DNA from: Minisyncoccota bacterium
GTDB taxonomy: Bacteria; Patescibacteriota; Minisyncoccia; UBA6257; JAGOQP01
DNA length: 64,000 nt
Direction of reading: 5' to 3'
NCBI GenBank assembly: GCA_041661795.1
Contig: JBAZTS010000001.1
Span: forward strand, 124,161 to 188,160
This document shows, in pieces, positions 3,871-54,075 of this stretch (within the stretch, counting starts at the first letter, position 1; each line of letters starts with the position of its first letter). A program made the translations under genes and the position numbers. The notes under the pieces were generated by a model that was not told where the DNA came from, ran no database searches, and saw only the letters and a list, made by a program, of their open reading frames with translations.

Positions 3871-3958
3871 GGGTAGGTAGTCTCGTAGGGGCCGAGGGCG
3901 GTCTGTAAAACCGTTGGCCAATGTGCTCGCGTGAGTTCGACTCTCACCCTACCCACCA
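3871..3958 (+). tRNA. tRNA-Tyr (anticodon GTA), long variable arm, encoded CCA
   Basis: Acceptor GGGTAGG/CCTACCC. Anticodon loop CTGTAAA. Long variable arm as in bacterial tRNA-Tyr. Terminal ACCA. Confidence 0.85.
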
Positions 3959-3960
3959 CA

Positions 3961-4032
3961 GCCACCTTAGCTCAGCGGTAGAGCAACACTTTTGTAAAGT
4001 GAAGGTCCTCGGTTCAAATCCGAGAGGTGGCT
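3961..4032 (+). tRNA. tRNA-Thr (anticodon TGT)
   Basis: Acceptor GCCACCT/AGGTGGC. D-arm TAGCTCAGCGGTAGAGC. Anticodon stem ACACT/AGTGA with loop TTTGTAA. T-arm CTCGGTTCAAATCCGAG. Confidence 0.8.
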
Positions 4033-4081
4033 CAGATAAATCAAAAATAAAATTCCCTTTTTGGAGGGAATTTTATTTTTG

Positions 4082-4155
4082 AGCCAATGGCCGGAATTGA
4101 ACCGGCGACCTACTCCTTACCATGGAGTTGCTCTACCAGCTGAGCTACATTGGCG
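4082..4155 (-). tRNA. tRNA-Thr (anticodon GGT)
   Basis: Reverse complement gives GCCAATGTAGCTCAGCTGGTAGAGCAACTCCATGGTAAGGAGTAGGTCGCCGGTTCAATTCCGGCCATTGGCT. The anticodon loop is ATGGTAA. Confidence 0.8.
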
Positions 4156-5874: not shown

Positions 5875-6567
5875 CTAAATACCTCTCCACTCTTCTATCT
5901 TTTTATGGTCTCCTGACAAAAGAACCTTAGGAACAGACCATTTTCGGCCCGAGGCCGATCCGCCTTGGGCGGACTTTCCATCGGGGCTAAAAACTTCTGG
6001 ACGAGTATAGGTTGGATAACTTCCCTTTAATTCTTCTAAGGATTCTTTTTTCCCAAGAACTCCAGGAATAAATCTGGAAACCGAATCAACTAAGACCATC
6101 GCCGGTATCTCGCCGCCAGAAAGAATAAAATCCCCTATTGATATTTCTTCATCGGCAATATGTTTGGCCACCCTTTCATCAACTCCTTCATATCTGCCAC
6201 AAATTAAAATTAAATTGTTATACTTAGACAATCTTTGAGCAATTTTATTATCAAACTTTTTACCTCTTGTTGAAAACAAAATCACTCTTATCCTAGTAGT
6301 AGAACTTCGTTCACTATGGGACTTCGCTTTGCTCGTTTTTGACTTTATATTTTCCACTGCTTTATATATTGGTCCAACTTTTAAAACCATCCCCGGTCCT
6401 CCCCCAAAAGGACTATCATCTATCTTTTTATGCTTGTCCTTAGCCCATTTTCTGATGTTATATGTTTTTATAGATATCAATTTGTTTTTCTGAGCGCGCC
6501 CTAAAATTGACGATTTAAAATAATCTTCAAAAACATCGGGAATAGCTGAAAGAATGTGAAAAATCAT
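5875..6567 (-). CDS. trmD: tRNA (guanine37-N1)-methyltransferase
   Basis: TrmD hallmarks: N-terminal MIFHILSAIPDVFEDYF and SPFGGGPGMVL. It also contains an in-frame GC-rich palindromic insert at 5945..5974 (see findings). Confidence 0.85.
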   Translation of the reverse strand: MIFHILSAIPDVFEDYFKSSILGRAQKNKLISIKTYNIRKWAKDKHKKIDDSPFGGGPGMVLKVGPIYKAVENIKSKTSKAKSHSERSSTTRIRVILFSTRGKKFDNKIAQRLSKYNNLILICGRYEGVDERVAKHIADEEISIGDFILSGGEIPAMVLVDSVSRFIPGVLGKKESLEELKGSYPTYTRPEVFSPDGKSAQGGSASGRKWSVPKVLLSGDHKKIEEWRGI

Positions 6568-10949: not shown

Positions 10950-11720
10950 CTATCTTGATTTAATATTATTGTACTTACCTATAAAAGTCAACCGGTGAAT
11001 TTTGGAAGGACCGTGTTTTTTGATGGCCTCTATGTGCTTTTTGGTTCCATATCCCTTGTGATGGTCAAATCCGTATTGAGGATATTTTTTGTGCAATTTG
11101 GTGATGTATTTGTCTCGGGTAATTTTAGCAACAATAGAAGCCAGAGACACAGCCGGAACTTTTTCATCGGCTTTGGGGAAATTTTTGAAAGTTAAATTCG
11201 TATGTTTATATTTCTTTATACTTTCATATTTCTGAATATTTATTTTTAAACTCCCATCAGCAATCACTTCACCATTACATTTAGAACGATCGTTCAAAAT
11301 GTAATGGTAGGATAATTTGTCTGACTTTCTCAATCTTTTCATTTTAACCATTGTTTTCTCAAATGCTTTTTGGGCGGCTAAATTACAAGCATTGCTGATA
11401 TTAATACCATCAATCTTTTTCTCGTTAACCCAAGCGCAGGAAAAAATAATTTTATTTTTCTTCACCCAAGAGAACCACTTGTATCTTTGCTTTTCTGAAA
11501 GATTTTTAGAGTCGGCCAGTTTGCGCGGATAATTGTATACCGTATACCGCCTGCCTGCCGGTAGGCATGGTATACCGTAATGCTTATACAGTTTTGATAA
11601 TTTTCTGTTTAAATCAAAAGATAAAATCACACATCCAACATAAACTCTACCGGCCAGTGGTCCCCGCCCGACCTCGTCTATACCGATAACATAGTCAATT
11701 TTTTTCATATATAACGTCAA
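10950..11720 (-). CDS. rnhB: ribonuclease HII (carries an in-frame repeat-derived insertion)
   Basis: IGIDEVGRGPLAG motif and downstream DSK. A ~20-aa insertion (KHYGIPCLPAGRRYTVYNYPRK) is encoded by the GTATACC/GCCTGCC palindromic element at 11535..11578. The start is probably the Met near 11708. Confidence 0.8.
   Translation of the reverse strand: MTLYMKKIDYVIGIDEVGRGPLAGRVYVGCVILSFDLNRKLSKLYKHYGIPCLPAGRRYTVYNYPRKLADSKNLSEKQRYKWFSWVKKNKIIFSCAWVNEKKIDGINISNACNLAAQKAFEKTMVKMKRLRKSDKLSYHYILNDRSKCNGEVIADGSLKINIQKYESIKKYKHTNLTFKNFPKADEKVPAVSLASIVAKITRDKYITKLHKKYPQYGFDHHKGYGTKKHIEAIKKHGPSKIHRLTFIGKYNNIKSR
11535..11578. repeat. GTATACC-GTATACC-GCCTGCCTGCCGGTAGGC-ATG-GTATACC palindromic repeat element embedded in rnhB
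   Basis: Seen in sequence: two tandem GTATACC heptamers, an imperfect GC-rich inverted repeat, and another GTATACC. The same heptamer recurs at the pilin-LamG loci. Confidence 0.6.
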
Positions 11721-27106: not shown

Positions 27107-27265
27107 CAATAAAATATTTAATCAGAGATTAGATATTTTATTTGGGCCACAGGAATCGAATAGAGGTGGGTCGGAGGACGCTTAGTCCTTCGTGTAGGAA
27201 ATTATTCAAAACCGAGGATTTTGAAAGAGTCCGCCCTGGGCGGACGATGTGAGATTCCCCGTAGG
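27107..27265 (+). repeat. structured spacer ending in a second copy of the tRNA-Ala 3' terminus (TCCCCGTAGGTCCAC at 27248..27262); contains a GTCCGCC-CTG-GGCGGAC hairpin
   Basis: A 15-bp direct repeat of the tRNA-Ala 3' end, seen in sequence. The embedded GC-rich hairpin at 27224..27242 resembles the dispersed CCGCC/GGCGG element. Confidence 0.5.
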
Positions 27266-40812: not shown

Positions 40813-40984
40813 AACATTATCGCTCATAGTTCATTTATTATACAAAAATCCACAATAAAAACAACTGGCTGGTTGTTAGTTAAGAGTTGATAATTATTTT
40901 GAAAACTTTTTTAGTTGCCCCAGCCGAAACTTTAGGATCCTCGGCCAACTCCATTCCGCCAAAGGCGGATCGATCAATAATCTT

Positions 40985-42530
<1,546 letters not shown>

Positions 42531-46083: not shown

Positions 46084-46180
46084 ATGAAATCGTTAACCGT
46101 ATACAGTATACAGGTATATAAGATAAACGAAAAAACAAGATAAATCAAGCTATTTATGCATCCGTTATTTTTTATAATTT

Positions 46181-47503
46181 TTAGTATAAAGAATATTTAC
46201 CGTCTAAATATTTTTCTACACTTTCGCGTTCATTGTCAGAAAGAGCTCTGTTATATACTATAATTTCGGCCATTTGTGAATTAGCACTGAGTGTTCCACC
46301 AATTGTATAAATTTCGTCGGTAAGATTAGGAACGGCGTTACAAGAATCACAGGTATAGAAAGACCCAATTGTTCCGTTATATCTCAATATTGGGTCCCTA
46401 TATCTATCTCCACTATTATTTGTCACAGAAAAAATACCGAAATTACTATAATCAAACCCCGTATTTCTCATGACTGAATATCCATCGGTATAACCGATAA
46501 CTCCATCAAAAGGGCCATTCCTATAATAAAGAATCCTTGTTGTTCCTCCTGCTCCAGAAGAAGATCCAAAGGAAAAGAATTTTACCCCATCTTCATACCA
46601 AGTCAAACTTTTTCCAACAAAGAACACTGAAGAAGCTCCAGAGCCACTTACTCCCAAAGCTCCTCCAGCCAAAGAATCATTTGCTCCGTCAAATTGGACT
46701 ACCGACTTTCCATTAACCTGGTTGGTTTTAAAAAGCGGTTTATAACTTACATTACTTTGTATGGCATCATTATTGTTTCCAGATAGATCATCCCAAGTTG
46801 AAATTGGATCATTATTAGAAAGATTTAGGGAGTCGGCTTTAAGCCATAATTTTGGGTCATTAGGTGACAAAAAAAGATTCATGCCAGCTTCAAATCTGAC
46901 GGGATCTCCACCTCCGTCACCAGAAGCAACTTCTTTTATCTTTTTTTCTGATTCCAAAAGAGCGGTCAAAATATATCCACCATTACTATCCACAGCATAA
47001 GCATAAAAATTAGATGTGGATACGGCATTGGTTTCATCTATAGGAAGATCAGATATAAAAGGTCCAACCGATGTTATTCTGGTAAAATCAATTGGAATCC
47101 AACCCGTTCCATCAACATTTTTAAAGGTTGAAGTAGGGGCACATTTGTAAGACCACCCAGAAATTGCGGGAAGTCCTAAGTTTGCGCATGTTGTAGAAGA
47201 ATCGGGAATGGAAATATATAAAGTATTAACGCTACCCAAAGACAAATTACCCAGTCCCGAGTATTTATATTTTTCAACGGCAATTTTAAGGTTGTTTAAA
47301 TCCGATATTCTTCTGGCATCCTTGCTTTCTTGTATAAAAGAAACTGGATTTAAAATAATAACTGTGGCCGCCGAAAGAACGATTATAATACCAACTGTTG
47401 TTAAAAGCTCACCCATAGTGAAGGAACGGGTATCGTATACCGTATACCGTATACCGGGATAGAGCAAATGCTTCTTAAGTTTAGATTTTATAAATTCAAT
47501 CAT
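46181..47503 (-). CDS. prepilin-type N-terminal domain protein with C-terminal LamG domain (mosaic paralog A)
   Basis: Leader MIEFIKSKLKKHLLYPGIRYTVYDTRS, then FTMGELLTTVGIIIVLSAATVII. LamG C-terminus (AEIIVYNRALSDNERESVEKYL). The leader contains a GTATACC x3 heptamer array. Confidence 0.65.
   Translation of the reverse strand: MIEFIKSKLKKHLLYPGIRYTVYDTRSFTMGELLTTVGIIIVLSAATVIILNPVSFIQESKDARRISDLNNLKIAVEKYKYSGLGNLSLGSVNTLYISIPDSSTTCANLGLPAISGWSYKCAPTSTFKNVDGTGWIPIDFTRITSVGPFISDLPIDETNAVSTSNFYAYAVDSNGGYILTALLESEKKIKEVASGDGGGDPVRFEAGMNLFLSPNDPKLWLKADSLNLSNNDPISTWDDLSGNNNDAIQSNVSYKPLFKTNQVNGKSVVQFDGANDSLAGGALGVSGSGASSVFFVGKSLTWYEDGVKFFSFGSSSGAGGTTRILYYRNGPFDGVIGYTDGYSVMRNTGFDYSNFGIFSVTNNSGDRYRDPILRYNGTIGSFYTCDSCNAVPNLTDEIYTIGGTLSANSQMAEIIVYNRALSDNERESVEKYLDGKYSLY
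47430..47456. repeat. tandem heptamer array (GTATACC)x3, 21 nt, in-frame inside the 5' coding region of the pilin-LamG gene
   Basis: GTATC-GTATACC-GTATACC-GTATACC seen directly. It encodes ...PGIRYTVYDTRS... in the leader peptide. Confidence 0.75.
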
Positions 47504-47532
47504 TTCTTCTGTATTCGGTATACGACGCCCAG

Positions 47533-48441
47533 TTATACGCCACTTAGTATTTTTATTTTATCCGACACCACTTTTTCCACTTCATGAACTACTTCGGGAA
47601 GTATCTTATAAGGAACGATTTCGTTGGGACGAGATAAAAGAGCCAAATCCAAACCTCTCTTCCAGGCAGTTCTAAGTTCTGTATTGATATGAACAATAGA
47701 TACTCCCGCCAAAACAGCCAGTTTTAATTGTTCGTTAGAAACCCCAGACGCCCCATGTAAAACCATGGGAATATCAATCATGCTTTTTATCTCTTTTATT
47801 CTCTCTACATCAAGATTGGGGTCGGAAGCATCCAAAAACATTCCATGCAGAGTCCCTAGTGCCGGCGCCAGTAAATCTATTCCCGTTTCTTCTATAAATC
47901 TTTTGGCATCTTCGGGTTTAGTCAAATCTTCTTTTTTAACAGAAACACCTTCTGGGATTCTATCTAAAATAACTGACCCGGAACCTATATATCCAAGCTC
48001 CCCTTCCACCAAAACATCGCAATTATTTTTCTGGTTATATTCTTTGACAAAATTAACAACCTCTTTTGTCTCTCTTATGTTTTCTTCAATATTTTCTTTT
48101 CCGGCATCAAACAAAACTGCGTCAAATCCGGCCTCAACCGCTTCTTTTATTTTACCAAAAGAATGCGTATGGTCAGCGTTAAGAAAAATAGGAAAATTTC
48201 CGCCCGAGGCGGATCCGTCTATGATGGAAAATTCTTCTCTTAAACTTTTTATAAGAGCCACAACTTGTTTTATGCCTATAAAATCTCTTTCCCCTTCTGA
48301 AACTCCTATAATAACGGGCTGTTTCAAAGCGTAAGCAGCATCAAAAATTCCCTTAAGAGCCGCCAAATCGGAGATATTAAAATGCCCAACAGCTACATTG
48401 TGTAACTGAGCATCTTTTATTATTTCTCGCAATGTTTGCAT
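47533..48441 (-). CDS. fba: class II fructose-bisphosphate aldolase
   Basis: Class II FBA/TBP aldolase family motifs (NVAVGHFNISD, LNADHTHSF, HGASG). Contains an in-frame GC-rich palindromic insert at 48200..48217. Confidence 0.8.
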   Translation of the reverse strand: MQTLREIIKDAQLHNVAVGHFNISDLAALKGIFDAAYALKQPVIIGVSEGERDFIGIKQVVALIKSLREEFSIIDGSASGGNFPIFLNADHTHSFGKIKEAVEAGFDAVLFDAGKENIEENIRETKEVVNFVKEYNQKNNCDVLVEGELGYIGSGSVILDRIPEGVSVKKEDLTKPEDAKRFIEETGIDLLAPALGTLHGMFLDASDPNLDVERIKEIKSMIDIPMVLHGASGVSNEQLKLAVLAGVSIVHINTELRTAWKRGLDLALLSRPNEIVPYKILPEVVHEVEKVVSDKIKILSGV

Positions 48442-48448
48442 GGACTTA

Positions 48449-49720
48449 TTATATACTAATATATCCTTTAGTGATATTTTCTTTAGTCATTTCTTCCATT
48501 TTCCCCTCACCAAAATAGGAAGAAAATATTTTATTCCATAGTGACTCCTGATGATGATAAAGATACTTAATCATTTCAACCTTTTTAACTAAAGCCATTG
48601 AGGTATCTATAAGATTAAAGCTGACTAGAACTTCTATCCCGGTATCAGTAGAAAAATAATCGCCTATCCAATTCAGCCCCGCCCAGAAAGCAAAATCTCC
48701 ATCCAAGCCATGTTTTTTTGCCAACTCAACAATATTCTTTTCTGCTTTCTCCCAATGCAAGGCCTCCGGGTTAACGTGAGGATAAAAAAGACGCCAGTCG
48801 TTTTCGTCGTCTTTGGCTAAATATCTTTGAGTAACCATCCAATCTCCTTCCTTTATCAGTTCCTTAGAATCAATTACGTCGCCTCTTAAAAGAGAGGAAA
48901 AATCTTCAAAAAAGTTATGATTTATTATCTTTTTTCCGCCCGAGGCGGATCCGCCTATGGCGGAGAATACATCCGAATAAAAAGATATTTCATTAACATA
49001 ATGGAATAAGAGAGCCACGGTTCTTATGAGTTCTCCGGGGATATCCAAGGATATAGGAATGACAAATATTATTCCTAATTCTTTTAAGTGGCTAATGTTG
49101 TGATATTTTTTTTCAACAAATTTCTGAGCCAACTCTTTCCATCTGTCGCTGATAGAAATGATTTCTATTGGCCTTATCTCAAAATCAGCGCTGGACAAAT
49201 CTTGATAATGCCTGATAAAAAACATATTTATCCATTCAGCTCCTTCTACAAATCTAAGGGCGCTGGCTACTTCCCTCCAGTCCTCTTTTTTGAGCATCTC
49301 TGAAACGCTTTGATAACCAAGTGCGGAAAGAATCTTTTTAGGCGGTTCTTTTTCCAATATTTCTATAAACTTGTCTTTTTTTATAAAAAATCCTTCTTTT
49401 TTACCAACCACCAGATTAACCGCCTCAATTATTTTTTGGCATCCACCAACTTCAAAATGACATGGATTTCCTAAAACCGAATTGAGAATTTTATCGTCCT
49501 TGTTTATTTTTCCTATAAGAGCGTCAAATATTTGTTTGGCGCTGGAATCTTTTTTGAGACCAAGAAAGCTTAGTTTTTCCAGCATTATTGCCTCATTGTC
49601 AGAGCAAATTTCATCAAGCATTCTGGCTTTATTGGTAATTTTGCCAAGCTTATCCTGAACGTTTTTTATAACATCTTTATCGGTTCTTAAAATTCTTGCA
49701 ATTTTTTCGTAGGATTCCAT
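48449..49720 (-). CDS. hypothetical protein (423 aa) sandwiched between two pilin-LamG genes
   Basis: No motif recognised. Carries the longest copy of the GC-rich palindromic element (48936..48963), encoding AIGGSASGGK. Confidence 0.5.
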   Translation of the reverse strand: MESYEKIARILRTDKDVIKNVQDKLGKITNKARMLDEICSDNEAIMLEKLSFLGLKKDSSAKQIFDALIGKINKDDKILNSVLGNPCHFEVGGCQKIIEAVNLVVGKKEGFFIKKDKFIEILEKEPPKKILSALGYQSVSEMLKKEDWREVASALRFVEGAEWINMFFIRHYQDLSSADFEIRPIEIISISDRWKELAQKFVEKKYHNISHLKELGIIFVIPISLDIPGELIRTVALLFHYVNEISFYSDVFSAIGGSASGGKKIINHNFFEDFSSLLRGDVIDSKELIKEGDWMVTQRYLAKDDENDWRLFYPHVNPEALHWEKAEKNIVELAKKHGLDGDFAFWAGLNWIGDYFSTDTGIEVLVSFNLIDTSMALVKKVEMIKYLYHHQESLWNKIFSSYFGEGKMEEMTKENITKGYISI

Positions 49721-49729
49721 AAATTTATT

Positions 49730-51055
49730 TTAATATAAAGCGTATTTGTTATTTAAATATTTTTCTACGCTTTGACGTTCTCCTGTGGTTAATGTGTGAT
49801 CATAAAGAATAATTTCAGCAATTTGTACGTTAGAAAAACCTTCCACATTACTAGCTCCTTGCGAAGCTCCGATTAAATATTCGTCGTCGTCAGTATTTGA
49901 AGTACCAGCACAACCATCAGCAGCGTTGTAACTATAAGCCGCTCCGTTGACATAGAGACCGCCAGAACAGTTAGTTCCTCCAGTGGAATCTTGTTGATCA
50001 ATTAATTTAAAAGAAGTTTGATCAAATCCTTCTCCGAATTTAATCCAAGCACCTCCCATCGATCTCCAGAAACTCAACGGAGCAGTTCTAAATCCGAAAT
50101 ATTTAAATTGTCCGTCTGCTCCGGTTGAAGAACCTAAATAAACAACAGCCACAGGATCTCCATACCAACTCAAACTTTTAGCTACTATAAATAAAGTTTG
50201 ACCTCTAGTACCAGAAATTCCTGTTGGTCCTCCAATTAGATAATTATCAATTCCATCAAATTGAACTACCGAATTTCCATTAACTTGATTGGTTTTTAAG
50301 ATCGGCTTATAACTTACATTACTTTGTACGGCATTATTATTATTTCCAGACATATCGTTCCAAGTTGAAATTGGATCATTATCAGAAATCCCCAAGGAAT
50401 CCGCCTTTAACCATAATCTGGGACCATTAGATACTAAGGAGAGGTCAGTTCCTTTTTCAAATCTAATTGGATCTCCACCTCCGTCATTAGAAGCAGCAGA
50501 AATAAATTTATTTGATTCTATAAGAGCTGCTAGTTTCCAAGATCCTCCTGGAATATACGTATAATAAAGTCCATCTGAAGCAGAGTTAGTGGGATCAATA
50601 GGAAGAGATGAAAGTTGAATAACGGATTGAGTAGTAAAATTGACAGGAATCCAACCTGTTCCATCTGTCTTGATAAGGTTAGTTATAGTAACACAATTAT
50701 ATATGTATCCCGTAGGTAAAGAAGGAAGACCAAGATTGTCGCATGTTGCTGAAGAATCAGGGATGGAGACATAGACGGTAAGAGATGTTCCAAAGGAAAG
50801 GGTGGGGTCTATGACTTCTAGGTTCTGGAGGGAGTTATTGAGTAAAGAGAGGTCTTGCATTCTACGAGAGTCCCTAGTTTGAGCAAGATAATCAGCAGGG
50901 TTGAGGACGATAATGACTGCGGTTGTGAGTACGGCAAGAATACCTATAACAACGAGGAGTTCTACAAGGGTGAAGGAACGGGAATTGTATACCGTAGACC
51001 GTATACAGGGATAAGAAAAATACTTCTTTAGTTTGGATTTAATAGATTTATTCAT
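49730..51055 (-). CDS. prepilin-type N-terminal domain protein with C-terminal LamG-like domain (mosaic paralog B)
   Basis: Leader MNKSIKSKLKKYFSYPCIRSTVYNSRS, then FTLVELLVVIGILAVL. The N-terminal third is near-identical to the 62398..63693 protein. The middle segment is near-identical to the 46181..47503 protein. Confidence 0.65.
   Translation of the reverse strand: MNKSIKSKLKKYFSYPCIRSTVYNSRSFTLVELLVVIGILAVLTTAVIIVLNPADYLAQTRDSRRMQDLSLLNNSLQNLEVIDPTLSFGTSLTVYVSIPDSSATCDNLGLPSLPTGYIYNCVTITNLIKTDGTGWIPVNFTTQSVIQLSSLPIDPTNSASDGLYYTYIPGGSWKLAALIESNKFISAASNDGGGDPIRFEKGTDLSLVSNGPRLWLKADSLGISDNDPISTWNDMSGNNNNAVQSNVSYKPILKTNQVNGNSVVQFDGIDNYLIGGPTGISGTRGQTLFIVAKSLSWYGDPVAVVYLGSSTGADGQFKYFGFRTAPLSFWRSMGGAWIKFGEGFDQTSFKLIDQQDSTGGTNCSGGLYVNGAAYSYNAADGCAGTSNTDDDEYLIGASQGASNVEGFSNVQIAEIILYDHTLTTGERQSVEKYLNNKYALY
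50987..51007. repeat. degenerate heptamer array GTATACC-GTAGACC-GTATACA in the 5' coding region of pilin-LamG paralog B
   Basis: Seen in sequence. It encodes ...PCIRSTVYN.... Further GTATAC motifs lie in the promoter region 51061..51090. Confidence 0.65.
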
Positions 51056-52092: not shown

Positions 52093-54075
52093 TTATTTTA
52101 ATCTGTTTTCATAATACCACTCAAACACTTTCTTGGCTACCGGAACAGCATTTAAACTACCCTCCTTGGCGTCTTCTATCAGCACTAAGACAGCTATTTG
52201 TTGAGGTATCGCAGATTCACCCTGATCAAGACGTGGATTGTCGCCGATATTCTCATCTGCGCTTATCTGCGTTGTTTCCTTTGGAAGCAAGTTGTAGCCA
52301 ACAAAAAATGCATTTACTTTGGCATTATTTTCTATCTGAGCACTTCCGGTTTTGGCGGCAATTTTTAAAGGAATACCATTCAATATATGAGAGGTTCCAT
52401 ATTCTTTTTCTACTCCATCCATCATTCCTTTTTCAACTTCGGAAAAATTATTAACATCAGAAAACTCCATCAAATCATAAGACGGATTTTTAGTAAAAAC
52501 AGATTCTTGTAAATTATTTTTAATTTCCTTTACTAAATAAGGATTGAAAAGTTTCCCCTTAGAATTAATGGCTGATATATATCTTAAAAGAGCTAACGGG
52601 CTAATCATTAAATCTCCCTGACCTATGGAAACGTTATAAGTATCTCCTATTCTCCAAATTTGACCCGTTCTTTCCTCTTTTTTCTCCGGATCTGGTAGGA
52701 CCCCAACCGATTCGCCGATAATATCTATACCTGTCTTTTTATCTAATAAAAACTTTTTCCAATAATCTATTAACCTATAAACCCCAAGACCCTTTAGATT
52801 TTCTCCGCCCAAGGCGGATCCGCCTTTGGAGGAAAATCCTCCACCAACTTCGTAGAAGTAAACATTGCTGGAACGAGCCAGGGCTGAATACAAATTAACC
52901 CAGCCATGTGCTTTCCAATCAACAAATCTTGAGGGTTTGTCTGGAAAATAAGGATTGGGAATTTCTATGTAACCGGCAGAAAAAATCGAATAAAAAGGAT
53001 CAACTACTTTTTCTTCTAAAGCCCCAAAAGCCACCAACGGCTTGATGGTAGACCCCGGGCTGTATATTCCAGAAATTATTCTATTAAATGTCGGCCTGAG
53101 AGAATCGGAAAAAAGAGAGGATGACAAGTTATTATTGTCAAAACTTGGCAAACTCACCATAGAAAGAATTTCACCGTTTGATGGATCCATAATAAGCCCA
53201 GCTCCTGATTTTCTGCCCAAAAAATTAAGTTGATTTTTAAGTTCCGTATAAAAGAACTTTTGTAAATCAGCATCTAAAGTAGTGGTCAAACTACTGCCCG
53301 AAACAGGATCGGAAAATTTTTTCTCTTCAATAGTATTTCCCAAAGCGTCTTTGAAAACCACCGTGCTTCCTTTTTTACCTCTAATATATTTATCGTAATA
53401 TGCCTCTAAACCACTTTTGCCTATTTCATCATTTAAATCAAAACTTTCGTCAGTGTCTATATCATTACGACTCACTAGTCCTACATAACCTAATACGTGT
53501 GAAAAAACCTCTCCGTCAATATATCTCCTGGAGAAATTGTTTTCTACCAGAAGAAAATCAAAATTGAGATTCTTTATAGCCAAGCTCTGTTCCAAAGATA
53601 TATTTTTTAAAAGAGTAAGATGCGATTGTCTCTCTAAATTAGCCGATAGAATTGAATCTTTTATGGTCTGTTTATCAAAAGGAACTATTATGTTTATTTT
53701 TTCTAAAAGATTATCCAATTCATCTCTTCTTTTTAGAAGTTGAGAAAGAGATAAGACCGCGTCAAAACTGGGATTATTGGCAACCAAAGATGTCCCATAT
53801 CTGTCATAGATAACTCCCCTTGGAGCTGTTAAAATAATTTCTTGTCCGGCATTGGCCAAAGCTCTAATTTTATAAAAATCATCACCAAATCCAATGTAAA
53901 TAAATCTAAAAGCAAACAACAGAATAACCGCAAAGATTACGAGCCCAACAATTTTGAACACAGAAAAAGAGACGGGTTTTTCCACGGCTTCTAAACCTTG
54001 GGAAAAATCGTCTAAAATCGCATCCTCTAAAAAAATCTCTTTTCTAGCCATAGTCCTAAGAAAAAGAACAAACAA
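52093..54075 (-). CDS. mrdA: penicillin-binding protein 2 (elongasome transpeptidase)
   Basis: N-terminal TM anchor. Transpeptidase motifs STIKP (SxxK), SSN-like, and KTGSA (KTG). Directly downstream of mreBCD. Contains an in-frame palindromic insert at 52805..52832 encoding KGGSALGGE. Confidence 0.8.
   Translation of the reverse strand: MFVLFLRTMARKEIFLEDAILDDFSQGLEAVEKPVSFSVFKIVGLVIFAVILLFAFRFIYIGFGDDFYKIRALANAGQEIILTAPRGVIYDRYGTSLVANNPSFDAVLSLSQLLKRRDELDNLLEKINIIVPFDKQTIKDSILSANLERQSHLTLLKNISLEQSLAIKNLNFDFLLVENNFSRRYIDGEVFSHVLGYVGLVSRNDIDTDESFDLNDEIGKSGLEAYYDKYIRGKKGSTVVFKDALGNTIEEKKFSDPVSGSSLTTTLDADLQKFFYTELKNQLNFLGRKSGAGLIMDPSNGEILSMVSLPSFDNNNLSSSLFSDSLRPTFNRIISGIYSPGSTIKPLVAFGALEEKVVDPFYSIFSAGYIEIPNPYFPDKPSRFVDWKAHGWVNLYSALARSSNVYFYEVGGGFSSKGGSALGGENLKGLGVYRLIDYWKKFLLDKKTGIDIIGESVGVLPDPEKKEERTGQIWRIGDTYNVSIGQGDLMISPLALLRYISAINSKGKLFNPYLVKEIKNNLQESVFTKNPSYDLMEFSDVNNFSEVEKGMMDGVEKEYGTSHILNGIPLKIAAKTGSAQIENNAKVNAFFVGYNLLPKETTQISADENIGDNPRLDQGESAIPQQIAVLVLIEDAKEGSLNAVPVAKKVFEWYYENRLK

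Follow-up and report, generated by a model that had tools for sequence, protein, structure and literature searches.

A 30-bp palindromic double hairpin, probably a very short insertion element, lying in frame within unrelated genes of a Candidatus Paceibacterota genome

Four unrelated genes in a 64-kb stretch of a metagenome-assembled Candidatus Paceibacterota genome contain what looks like the same GC-rich palindrome, read each time as a peptide resembling GGSASGG. The whole stretch is called the window here, and its alleles are marked W. What is this palindrome, and how did it come to lie inside genes for such different proteins? A sequence-only reading of the window had proposed a dispersed element that inserts in frame and is tolerated in surface loops, in the manner of the Rickettsia palindromic elements. 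The answer favoured here, with a probability of roughly 0.7, is a very short, non-autonomous, replicating insertion element that is defined by its structure and filtered by selection.

The core of the palindrome, the 12-mer GGCGGATCCGCC, has four matches in the window at no more than one mismatch, against 0.02 expected from dinucleotide-preserving shuffles. A mismatch scan with a 28-mer and a covariance model with its filters off, both run over the whole window, give a census of exactly four full copies (E 5e-15 to 3e-12; Table 1). Gene annotation places them in the genes for TrmD, a class II fructose-bisphosphate aldolase (FBA), a protein without a Pfam match and PBP2. These are the copies and the hosts that had been named from the sequence alone, and the sequences quoted then at 48200 and 48936 are present. 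All four lie in minus-strand genes and share one reading frame, in which they are translated as S-A-x-G-G-S-A-x-G-G. The same scans return two single-hairpin relatives, one near the 3' end of the 16S rRNA gene and one near tRNA-Ala, where non-coding relatives had also been claimed. They are possibly solo units, and their membership is uncertain.

Could the likeness be one of peptides rather than of DNA? In the 62 long open reading frames (ORFs) of the window GGC makes up 12% of the Gly codons, TCC 15% of the Ser codons and GCC 34% of the Ala codons, and the probability of finding GGC-GGA-TCC-GCC given the peptide GGSA is 0.003. All GGSA and SAxGG peptides of the window fall in the four copies, with the codons of the element. 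Because this choice of codons would be improbable if peptides had converged, the likeness among the copies is at the level of DNA. Peptide convergence and Gly/Ser/Ala codon usage, the latter a source of the motif that the sequence-only reading had itself raised as an objection, are therefore rejected.

The inserted unit is exactly 30 nt or 10 codons long and consists of TCCGCC-RRA-GGCGGA followed by TCCGCC-TYY-GGCGGA. Each 15-nt half forms a hairpin with a 6-bp GC stem and a 3-nt loop, the halves abut and the second mirrors the first. With its flanks the consensus reads TTT^TCCGCC...GGCGGA^AAA. The earlier description of discrete insertions was right about their discreteness, but the unit measures 30 nt and not 18-28 nt. 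It had also given all copies the same frame. The frame is indeed one and the same in four of four, whereas a shared orientation would say nothing: since the element equals its reverse complement, only the frame is informative.

The window copies fold, as had been anticipated. The structure obtained is a double hairpin, with a DNA folding energy of -12.8 kcal/mol (z about -4), and one hairpin of 16 bp results only where both loops chance to be complementary. Covariation was examined in an alignment of 45 distinct copies with up to six mismatches, partly picked by hand and so favouring hairpin-like sequences, in which 98% of cells pair under the double-hairpin model and 8 of 12 pairs have changes on both sides. 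There are 17 compensatory cells, compared with 1.5 +/- 1.1 in shuffles (0/500 shuffles reach 17). Among the compensated stems are TCGGCC..GGCCGA in the trmD copy of the window and TCTGCC..GGCAGA in its ortholog P0002; further sets pair TCAGCC..GGCTGA with CCAGCC..GGCTGG, and CTCGCC..GGCGAG with TGCGCC..GGCGCA. One long hairpin of 13-16 bp was rejected as the conserved structure, since it does no better than shuffles (46/500), and the two loops are only weakly complementary to each other (24 versus 16.5 expected, p = 0.03). A bidirectional terminator was rejected too, because a T-run upstream and an A-run downstream of the hairpins is the reverse of terminator order. No known RNA family in Rfam matches the element. 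Sister double hairpins whose stems are altered yet paired (TCAGCC..GGCTGA, CCAGCC..GGCTGG, CTCGCC..GGCGAG and CCCTCC..GGAGGG; Table 1) were also encountered, which suggests a superfamily defined by structure.

The case for insertion comes from filled and empty alleles. Two close relatives are available, contig L155, which codes for the FBA P0122 (93% protein identity; 292 aa compared with 302 aa in W), and contig L156, which is 86% identical to the window across 13.6 kb with conserved gene order. In fba the window allele and those of L155 and L156 are 92% identical in nucleotide sequence, with a clean 30-nt gap in the relatives that falls between TTC and AAT. W has GAATTT[30]AATTTT and both relatives have GAATTC^AATTTT; more fully, the window allele runs from GAAGAATTT through the insert TCCATCATAGACGGATCCGCCTCGGGCGGA to AATTTTCC, and the relatives pass directly from GAAGAATTC to AATTTTCC. 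No bases of the target are duplicated and none are lost. Listed FBA orthologs at 59-69% identity have 291-300 aa, and since these outgroups lack the insert, the simplest account of the fba copy is that the window lineage gained it. Such filled and empty 30-nt alleles, in genes that are otherwise collinear, stem from independent samples. A further difference between the window and L156 is a 222-bp insert in the latter (~3909-4130), between mreB and mreC, without counterpart in the window (site ~55173). It has terminal inverted repeats (ACCCCCTCACTCATTG...CAATGAGTGAGGGGGT) and looks like a miniature inverted-repeat transposable element (MITE).

The remaining copies are shared more widely. The one in the hypothetical gene is identical at 30 of 30 positions in L155 and L156; in the protein the insert occurs only in W and its 93% relative, and all orthologs at 61% identity or less are without it. 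One of the orthologs of this protein, P0270, has a different insert of 13 residues (TVIASPAESGTKQ) at the loop that holds the window element, and this may come from another repeat family. The PBP2 copy is common to W and L156 (29/30 identical), with the same stem change in both. In TrmD the loop at this site varies in length among 120 orthologs, and the motif is confined to W, P0002/P0003 and P0004. P0004 reads PEVF[SAKGGSTSGG]KAGKW where P0026 reads PEVFKAGRKLW. At the DNA level P0004 has GTG TTT, then TCCGCCAAGGGCGGA and TCAACCTCGGGCGGA, then AAA GCC, and removal of the 30 nt leaves PEVF-KAGKW, a form like that of P0026. Ortholog P0009 has a single unit at this site, not a doublet. Single units at sites that are filled by doublets in relatives may stem from slippage between the two 15-nt repeats, in which a doublet loses half of its length. 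Across the orthologs of FBA, TrmD and the hypothetical protein, the GGSASGG segments are lineage-specific insertions and not ancestral residues.

The sequence-only reading had under-called the extent of the element, which is found well beyond this genome. Exact matches to the 28-mer core were sought in 185,579 species-representative genomes, which gave at least 120 loci, spread over no fewer than 108 species genomes (the counts are lower bounds), whereas fewer than one would be expected by chance on our own estimate. Among the matches listed, all genomes are metagenome-assembled and, by record title, Patescibacteria from many classes account for about two thirds; the other listed hosts are Omnitrophota, Kiritimatiellae, Verrucomicrobia, Lentisphaerae, Planctomycetes, Ignavibacteriota and a few further groups. 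These taxon labels are taken from the records. Mis-binning does not explain this spread, because some of the matches lie on very long contigs (1.6 Mb in Ignavibacteriota, 287 kb in Omnitrophota). The contig names of the listed records belong to several assembly pipelines and many studies. No match to the 28-mer element was found among the plasmids of cultured organisms in PLSDB or among GenBank phages. The viral contigs of IMG/VR contain two full copies and one near-full copy, and the remaining 17-mer matches there are GC-rich noise. The host range echoes the phyla with which groundwater Patescibacteria most frequently exchange genes, exchange with Omnitrophota and Bacteroidota having been reported (PMC12455944). 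In one Kiritimatiellae genome, JAQUMN01, the 30-mer stands at one end of a ~190-nt repeat with copies that are 97% identical (L037 4588 and 6409; L084 7326), and is there part of that larger repeat.

One aspect that recurs across these genomes is the sequence at the point of entry. In 122 copies the three bases 5' of the 30-mer are T in 57/87/61% and the three bases 3' are A in 61/79/61%, and the preference is seen in genomes of 30-70% GC. All four window copies are preceded by TTY and followed by AAA, AAT or GAA. Another aspect is that copies within a genome resemble each other. The loop pair is equal in 9 of 22 within-genome pairs (41%) compared with 5% between genomes (permutation p = 1e-4), and the newer fba copy of the window has the same rare ATA/TCG loops as the copy 0.7 kb away. 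Moreover, two further orthologs have an insert at the fba site EEF^N, a perfect element with loops AAA/TCA in P0151 (60% identity) and one unit (TCCGCCGATGGCGGA) in P0161, whereas the site is empty in relatives closer than these. One site has therefore been targeted recurrently.

Where do the inserts lie in the proteins? Compared with solved structures they fall in alignment gaps of 12 residues in TrmD, 8 in FBA and 16 in PBP2 (MrdA). In the AlphaFold model of FBA the insert (72-81) is coil between a helix and the strand carrying the catalytic His motif, and its residues 76-79 form the only segment of the model with a predicted local distance difference test score (pLDDT) below 50. In that of TrmD the insert (199-208) is coil, with a pLDDT of 64-73 compared with a model mean of 85. 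By these gaps and models the inserts occupy loops of their host proteins, which is where they had been predicted to be.

The choice of reading frame is likewise uneven. For 67 of 125 perfect copies the ORF is unambiguous and has at least 200 codons, and among these the frame is SAxGGSAxGG in 58, RRRIRLRR in 6 and PPxADPP in 3. Copies in the non-glycine frames are mostly upstream of the first Pfam domain, and hence probably in 5' leaders; two lie within a domain, one of an aminotransferase and the other of a Cu-oxidase_4 protein. The 62 hosts match 116 Pfam families, and they include DnaG, RpoB, RpoC, several aminoacyl-tRNA synthetases, PGK, PurA, TsaD and DEAD helicases. The positions of the copies bear no fixed relation to gene starts, gene ends or domain borders. 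About half of the copies are inside long ORFs, and because the other half lie outside despite a coding density of ~90% (in the window, where GC is 34-44%), selection seems to remove genic copies.

How might these observations fit together? The starting point is a 30-bp palindrome, either strand of which can fold into a double hairpin. It enters at TTY^AAW-like sites, with the target bases neither duplicated nor deleted, and its copies have multiplied inside genomes, new ones resembling those nearby. Its length of 10 codons leaves the frame intact. Only two coding readings are open to a TTT^AAA site, TTT-AAA and xxT-TTA-AAx, because the third frame holds a TAA stop, and this constraint would keep the arginine-rich reading out of genes. 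Counter-selection of the PPxADPP reading would explain the rest of the frame bias, and the genic copies seen today would be the survivors, in tolerant surface loops and in the glycine-rich frame. The copying itself may be done in trans, by a structure-specific enzyme that recognises two hairpins in single-stranded DNA and resembles the HUH/Y1 enzymes that move repetitive extragenic palindromic sequences (REP), their doublets (REPIN) and hairpin elements of the IS200/IS605 type. An enzyme that recognises hairpins would explain why the stems stay paired while the loops, and even the letters of the stems, drift.

Several points weigh against an insertion element of this kind. No mobilising enzyme or autonomous parent was found around the copies. 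In stretches of up to 8 kb around them (810 ORFs, 120 loci) there is no linked transposase and no recurrent neighbour gene, the largest cluster of neighbours reaching 5 of 120 loci and consisting of housekeeping genes, and an autonomous parent with separated units was not seen in 120 + 120 loci. The strand symmetry of the element is unlike that of known hairpin elements mobilised by HUH enzymes, and a conventional transposase complex, which pairs the two ends, could not loop a duplex of only 30 bp. Identical stems in different phyla are hard to explain without a vector. The older copies that W and L156 share differ at 1 position in 60 nt, compared with ~10 per 100 nt of flank, and the TrmD copy common to W and P0002 has kept both hairpins through deep divergence. 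This conservation could reflect host function or self-correction of the palindrome instead; the slow change of the older copies may come from structural constraint, conversion between copies or quasi-palindrome self-correction. The covariation evidence shares the bias of its partly hand-picked alignment. Finally, some copies have 7-nt direct flanks, which do not fit a single mode of insertion without duplication.

These flanks belong to a set of tandem arrays. Seven of 115 copies (~6%) have an identical 7 nt on both sides, where 0.8 are expected and 0 of 2000 shuffles reach 7. In all seven the element is placed precisely at the border between units of a short heptamer array, and the heptamer differs from genome to genome. 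In metagenomes there are perfect arrays with a 37-nt period, composed of the 30-mer and a heptamer. A general 7-bp target duplication is rejected, since only 6% of copies show one. A metagenome scan for two units 1-30 nt apart revealed many other small repeats and short tandem arrays that reuse the hairpin unit, and because of this reuse the unit appears as a module, much as REP units do. Among them is a recurrent element of ~70 nt, AAGCGCAG-TCCGCCTGCGGCGGA-TGAGCATTTCGAGAGGCCTGCAA-TCCGCCTGCGGCGGA-CCATCGGG, with two hairpin units around a conserved spacer of 23-24 nt, which may represent a repeat family of its own or else a structured RNA. The window has a second repeat as well, intergenic tandem heptamers of the form GTATACN (e.g., CGGTATACGGTATACGG; 9 matches versus 0.01 expected). 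Two of these blocks (~46109 and ~51017) are missing from the 86%-identical L156, and therefore they are gained or lost quickly. A separate observation on the window is that its 16S rRNA gene has no adjoining 23S gene, none being present anywhere in the 64 kb; the rRNA genes are therefore unlinked.

Table 1. Copies of the element, their host genes and related repeats. Positions without a contig name are those of the window.
Feature	Position	Strand	Covariance-model span	Remarks
Perfect 30-nt element in hypothetical gene	48935..48964		48932-48967	coding strand TCCGCC-ATA-GGCGGA / TCCGCC-TCG-GGCGGA; read F[SAIGGSASGG]K
Degenerate copy in fba	48199..48228		48196-48231	3 stem changes; read F[SIIDGSASGG]N; loops ATA/TCG
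Copy in trmD	5944..5973		5941-5976	read K[SAQGGSASGR]K; one unit with flipped C-G to G-C stem pair (TCGGCC..GGCCGA)
Copy in PBP2 gene	52804..52833		52801-52836	1 stem change; read F[SSKGGSALGG]E
Single hairpin unit TCCGCCAAAGGCGGA	40955..40969		40952-40980	16 nt past 16S 3' end; E 2e-4
Single hairpin unit TCCGCCCTGGGCGGA	27230..27244		27219-27247	~120 nt downstream of tRNA-Ala; E 8e-3
Host gene, class II fructose-bisphosphate aldolase (fba)	47533..48441	-
Host gene, conserved Patescibacteria protein	48449..49720	-		no Pfam family
Host gene, trmD	5875..6567	-
Host gene, PBP2	52093..54075	-		MrdA-type transpeptidase
16S rRNA gene	40984-42530
GTATACN heptamer blocks	11533-11549, 46090-46113, 47433-47456, 47509-47525, 50992-51008, ~51060-51090
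Copies at heptamer boundaries	L067 1191, L069 4743, L093 2465, L094 7585, L095 7364, L099 4219, L121 2138
Arrays with 37-nt period	L195 1004-1084, L228 1892-1967, L276 4049-4129
Sister double hairpins	L115 2306, L141 116, L124 2008, L086 6892, L212 554-652, L159 6236-6318
Recurrent ~70-nt element	L203, L204, L224, L255, L183, L225, L185, L273, L253, L193, L252			metagenome contigs

The main rival of an enzyme-copied element is enzyme-free template switching. A nascent strand that stalls during replication would use its T-run or A-run as microhomology to copy a resident 30-mer and then switch back, leaving a clean insertion. Such a process needs no gene in the neighbourhood, and the survey found none linked; it accounts for the lack of target duplication at clean sites; and under it the TTT/AAA flanks could be microhomology instead of a recognised target. 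The new fba copy has the loops of the nearest copy, only 0.7 kb away, and the single-unit and tandem (30+7)n variants are suggestive of slippage. However, a passive process should amplify the palindromes that each lineage happens to possess, and yet the same stems are found across phyla. The independent hits at the fba site, in lineages whose source copies differ, also look like the choice of a target. Template switching is judged unlikely, if still the alternative to be taken most seriously.

Host function is a weaker rival. Here the palindrome would be a useful signal under selection, either a protein-binding DNA site or a double hairpin in mRNA that serves stability or translation pausing, and the peptide would be a by-product. 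Between W and L156 the old copies have barely changed, against differences of 8-12% in the genes around them, compensatory changes maintain the hairpins of the orthologous TrmD copy, and the sequence is conserved across phyla, all as a signal would be. What does not fit is that close relatives differ in presence or absence with the gene otherwise unchanged, and that copies decay (three stem changes in fba, one in PBP2, single units at some sites). Nor do the unrelated hosts offer a signal any fixed position relative to gene starts, ends or domain borders. Roughly half of the copies are outside long ORFs although coding density is ~90%, as if genic copies were removed, and Rfam holds no match. 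This makes a host signal somewhat less probable again than template switching.

A third possibility is that the 30-mer is a footprint left by a larger transposon, whose two terminal inverted repeats of 15 bp became joined when the interior was deleted or excised. The units do mirror each other in the way that such repeats do, and the Kiritimatiellae 30-mer is at the end of a ~190-nt repeat. Nevertheless, none of the 120 + 120 loci has a separated pair of units flanking a gene (a TCCGCCRRAGGCGGA ... TCCGCCTYYGGCGGA arrangement), there is no target duplication and the insert is always exactly 30 nt. In addition, the element has proliferated within genomes, as a scar would not, and a footprint is accordingly improbable. 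The last alternative combines chance, codon usage, convergent selection for Gly/Ser linkers and assembly or adapter artefacts, and although GGSASGG-like peptides serve as engineered flexible linkers in the literature and all listed loci of the genome scan are from metagenome-assembled genomes, it is refuted by the 0.02 core matches expected in shuffles, by the codon probability of 0.003 per site, by 30-nt presence and absence across independent samples, by records that their contig names assign to several pipelines and many studies, and by copies that bear point mutations yet remain in frame.

If the element is indeed a replicating insertion, selfish DNA within protein genes would no longer be the property of one intracellular genus but would extend to much of the uncultivated bacterial world, and the lower size limit for a replicating insertion element would fall to 30 bp. 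This raises the question of how a bare double hairpin comes to be copied into TTT^AAA sites with no duplication of the target. The element is easy to count, which opens the mechanism to phylogenetic profiling. The inserts are also natural linker-insertion experiments that mark permissive loops of essential proteins, and as lineage-specific indels they can mislead marker-gene alignments and phylogenies. Their loop sequences are markers of proliferation within genomes and, possibly, of DNA exchange between ultra-small bacteria and co-resident phyla.

How does the element compare with known systems? Rickettsia palindromic elements are ~100-150 bp long, form ten families confined to Rickettsia, and lie in frame in many unrelated housekeeping genes, where they are translated, compatible with the fold and without a transposase of their own (Ogata et al. 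2000, as summarised in PMC10969869). The behaviour here is the same: an in-frame palindrome in unrelated ORFs at positions the fold tolerates, adding a peptide and having no transposase of its own. The likeness drawn by the sequence-only reading thus stands for behaviour, but not for family membership. Here 30 bp encode 10 residues, compared with ~30-50 residues in the Rickettsia elements, and the element is strand-symmetric and found in several phyla, with a Paceibacterota host, rather than in Rickettsia only. It is set apart by length and host, and no relationship in sequence is apparent, 30 nt being too short to align to the consensus sequences of the Rickettsia elements.

Organellar genomes have GC-rich hairpins of a comparable kind. 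These include the GC clusters of yeast mitochondria, with a putative AG target duplication (PMC4478555), the double-hairpin elements of Allomyces (Paquin et al. 2000, cited in PMC4478555) and the repetitive hairpin elements of sponges (PMC2800124). They share with the present element GC-rich double hairpins in compact AT-rich genomes, and they are mobile by an unexplained mechanism and occasionally lie inside rRNA or protein genes. However, the element described here occupies a bacterial chromosome, among 16S, tRNA and housekeeping genes, and several phyla, and its clean sites have no duplication comparable to the putative AG of yeast.

REP and REPIN sequences consist of a palindromic unit of 20-40 bp, extragenic and species-specific, with a GTAG or CGTC head; they are mobilised by REP-associated tyrosine transposases (RAYT) and flank a RAYT (Y1 HUH) gene (PMC3116915, PMC3733652). 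The likeness lies in a palindromic unit defined by structure, in inverted doublets, in non-autonomous replication within a genome and in reuse of the unit. In contrast, the present element has no GTAG or CGTC head, is genic in half of its copies and keeps the same sequence across phyla, and no RAYT was seen in the stretches of up to 8 kb around its copies. MITEs, usually at least 50 bp long, have a target-site duplication and a recognisable parent insertion sequence (IS), and can create in-frame fusions (PMC10969869). The present element is non-autonomous and has inverted-repeat ends as they do, but it is 30 bp long and shows no target-site duplication in filled and empty pairs. Among 240 loci and 810 neighbouring ORFs there was no parent IS that shares its terminal inverted repeats.

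Hairpin elements derived from IS200/IS605 (palindrome-associated transposable elements, PATE) have unlike hairpins at their ends, are strand-specific and insert without duplication 3' of a fixed tetra- or pentanucleotide. The lack of duplication and the TTY^ flank preference are similar here, whereas the strand symmetry is dissimilar. The small dispersed repeats (SDR) of Nostoc, which Elhai et al. are said to have described in 2008, reportedly measure 21-27 nt, occur in cyanobacteria, encode no protein and are associated with tandem heptamer repeats. They would resemble the present element in being below or near 30 nt and in their association with heptamers (6% of copies here), but they are reportedly limited to cyanobacteria and different in sequence. 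Literature searches, with subscription journals outside their coverage, found no published description of the element. Its 30 bp fall well short of the intragenic and the transposase-dependent elements compared, and only the SDRs are reported to be as small. Perhaps, then, and this is put forward tentatively, it represents an undescribed class of mobile DNA: 30 bp made up of two hairpins and nothing else, copied by a structure-specific enzyme or by none, shared across phyla and repeatedly writing a flexible 10-residue linker into essential proteins.

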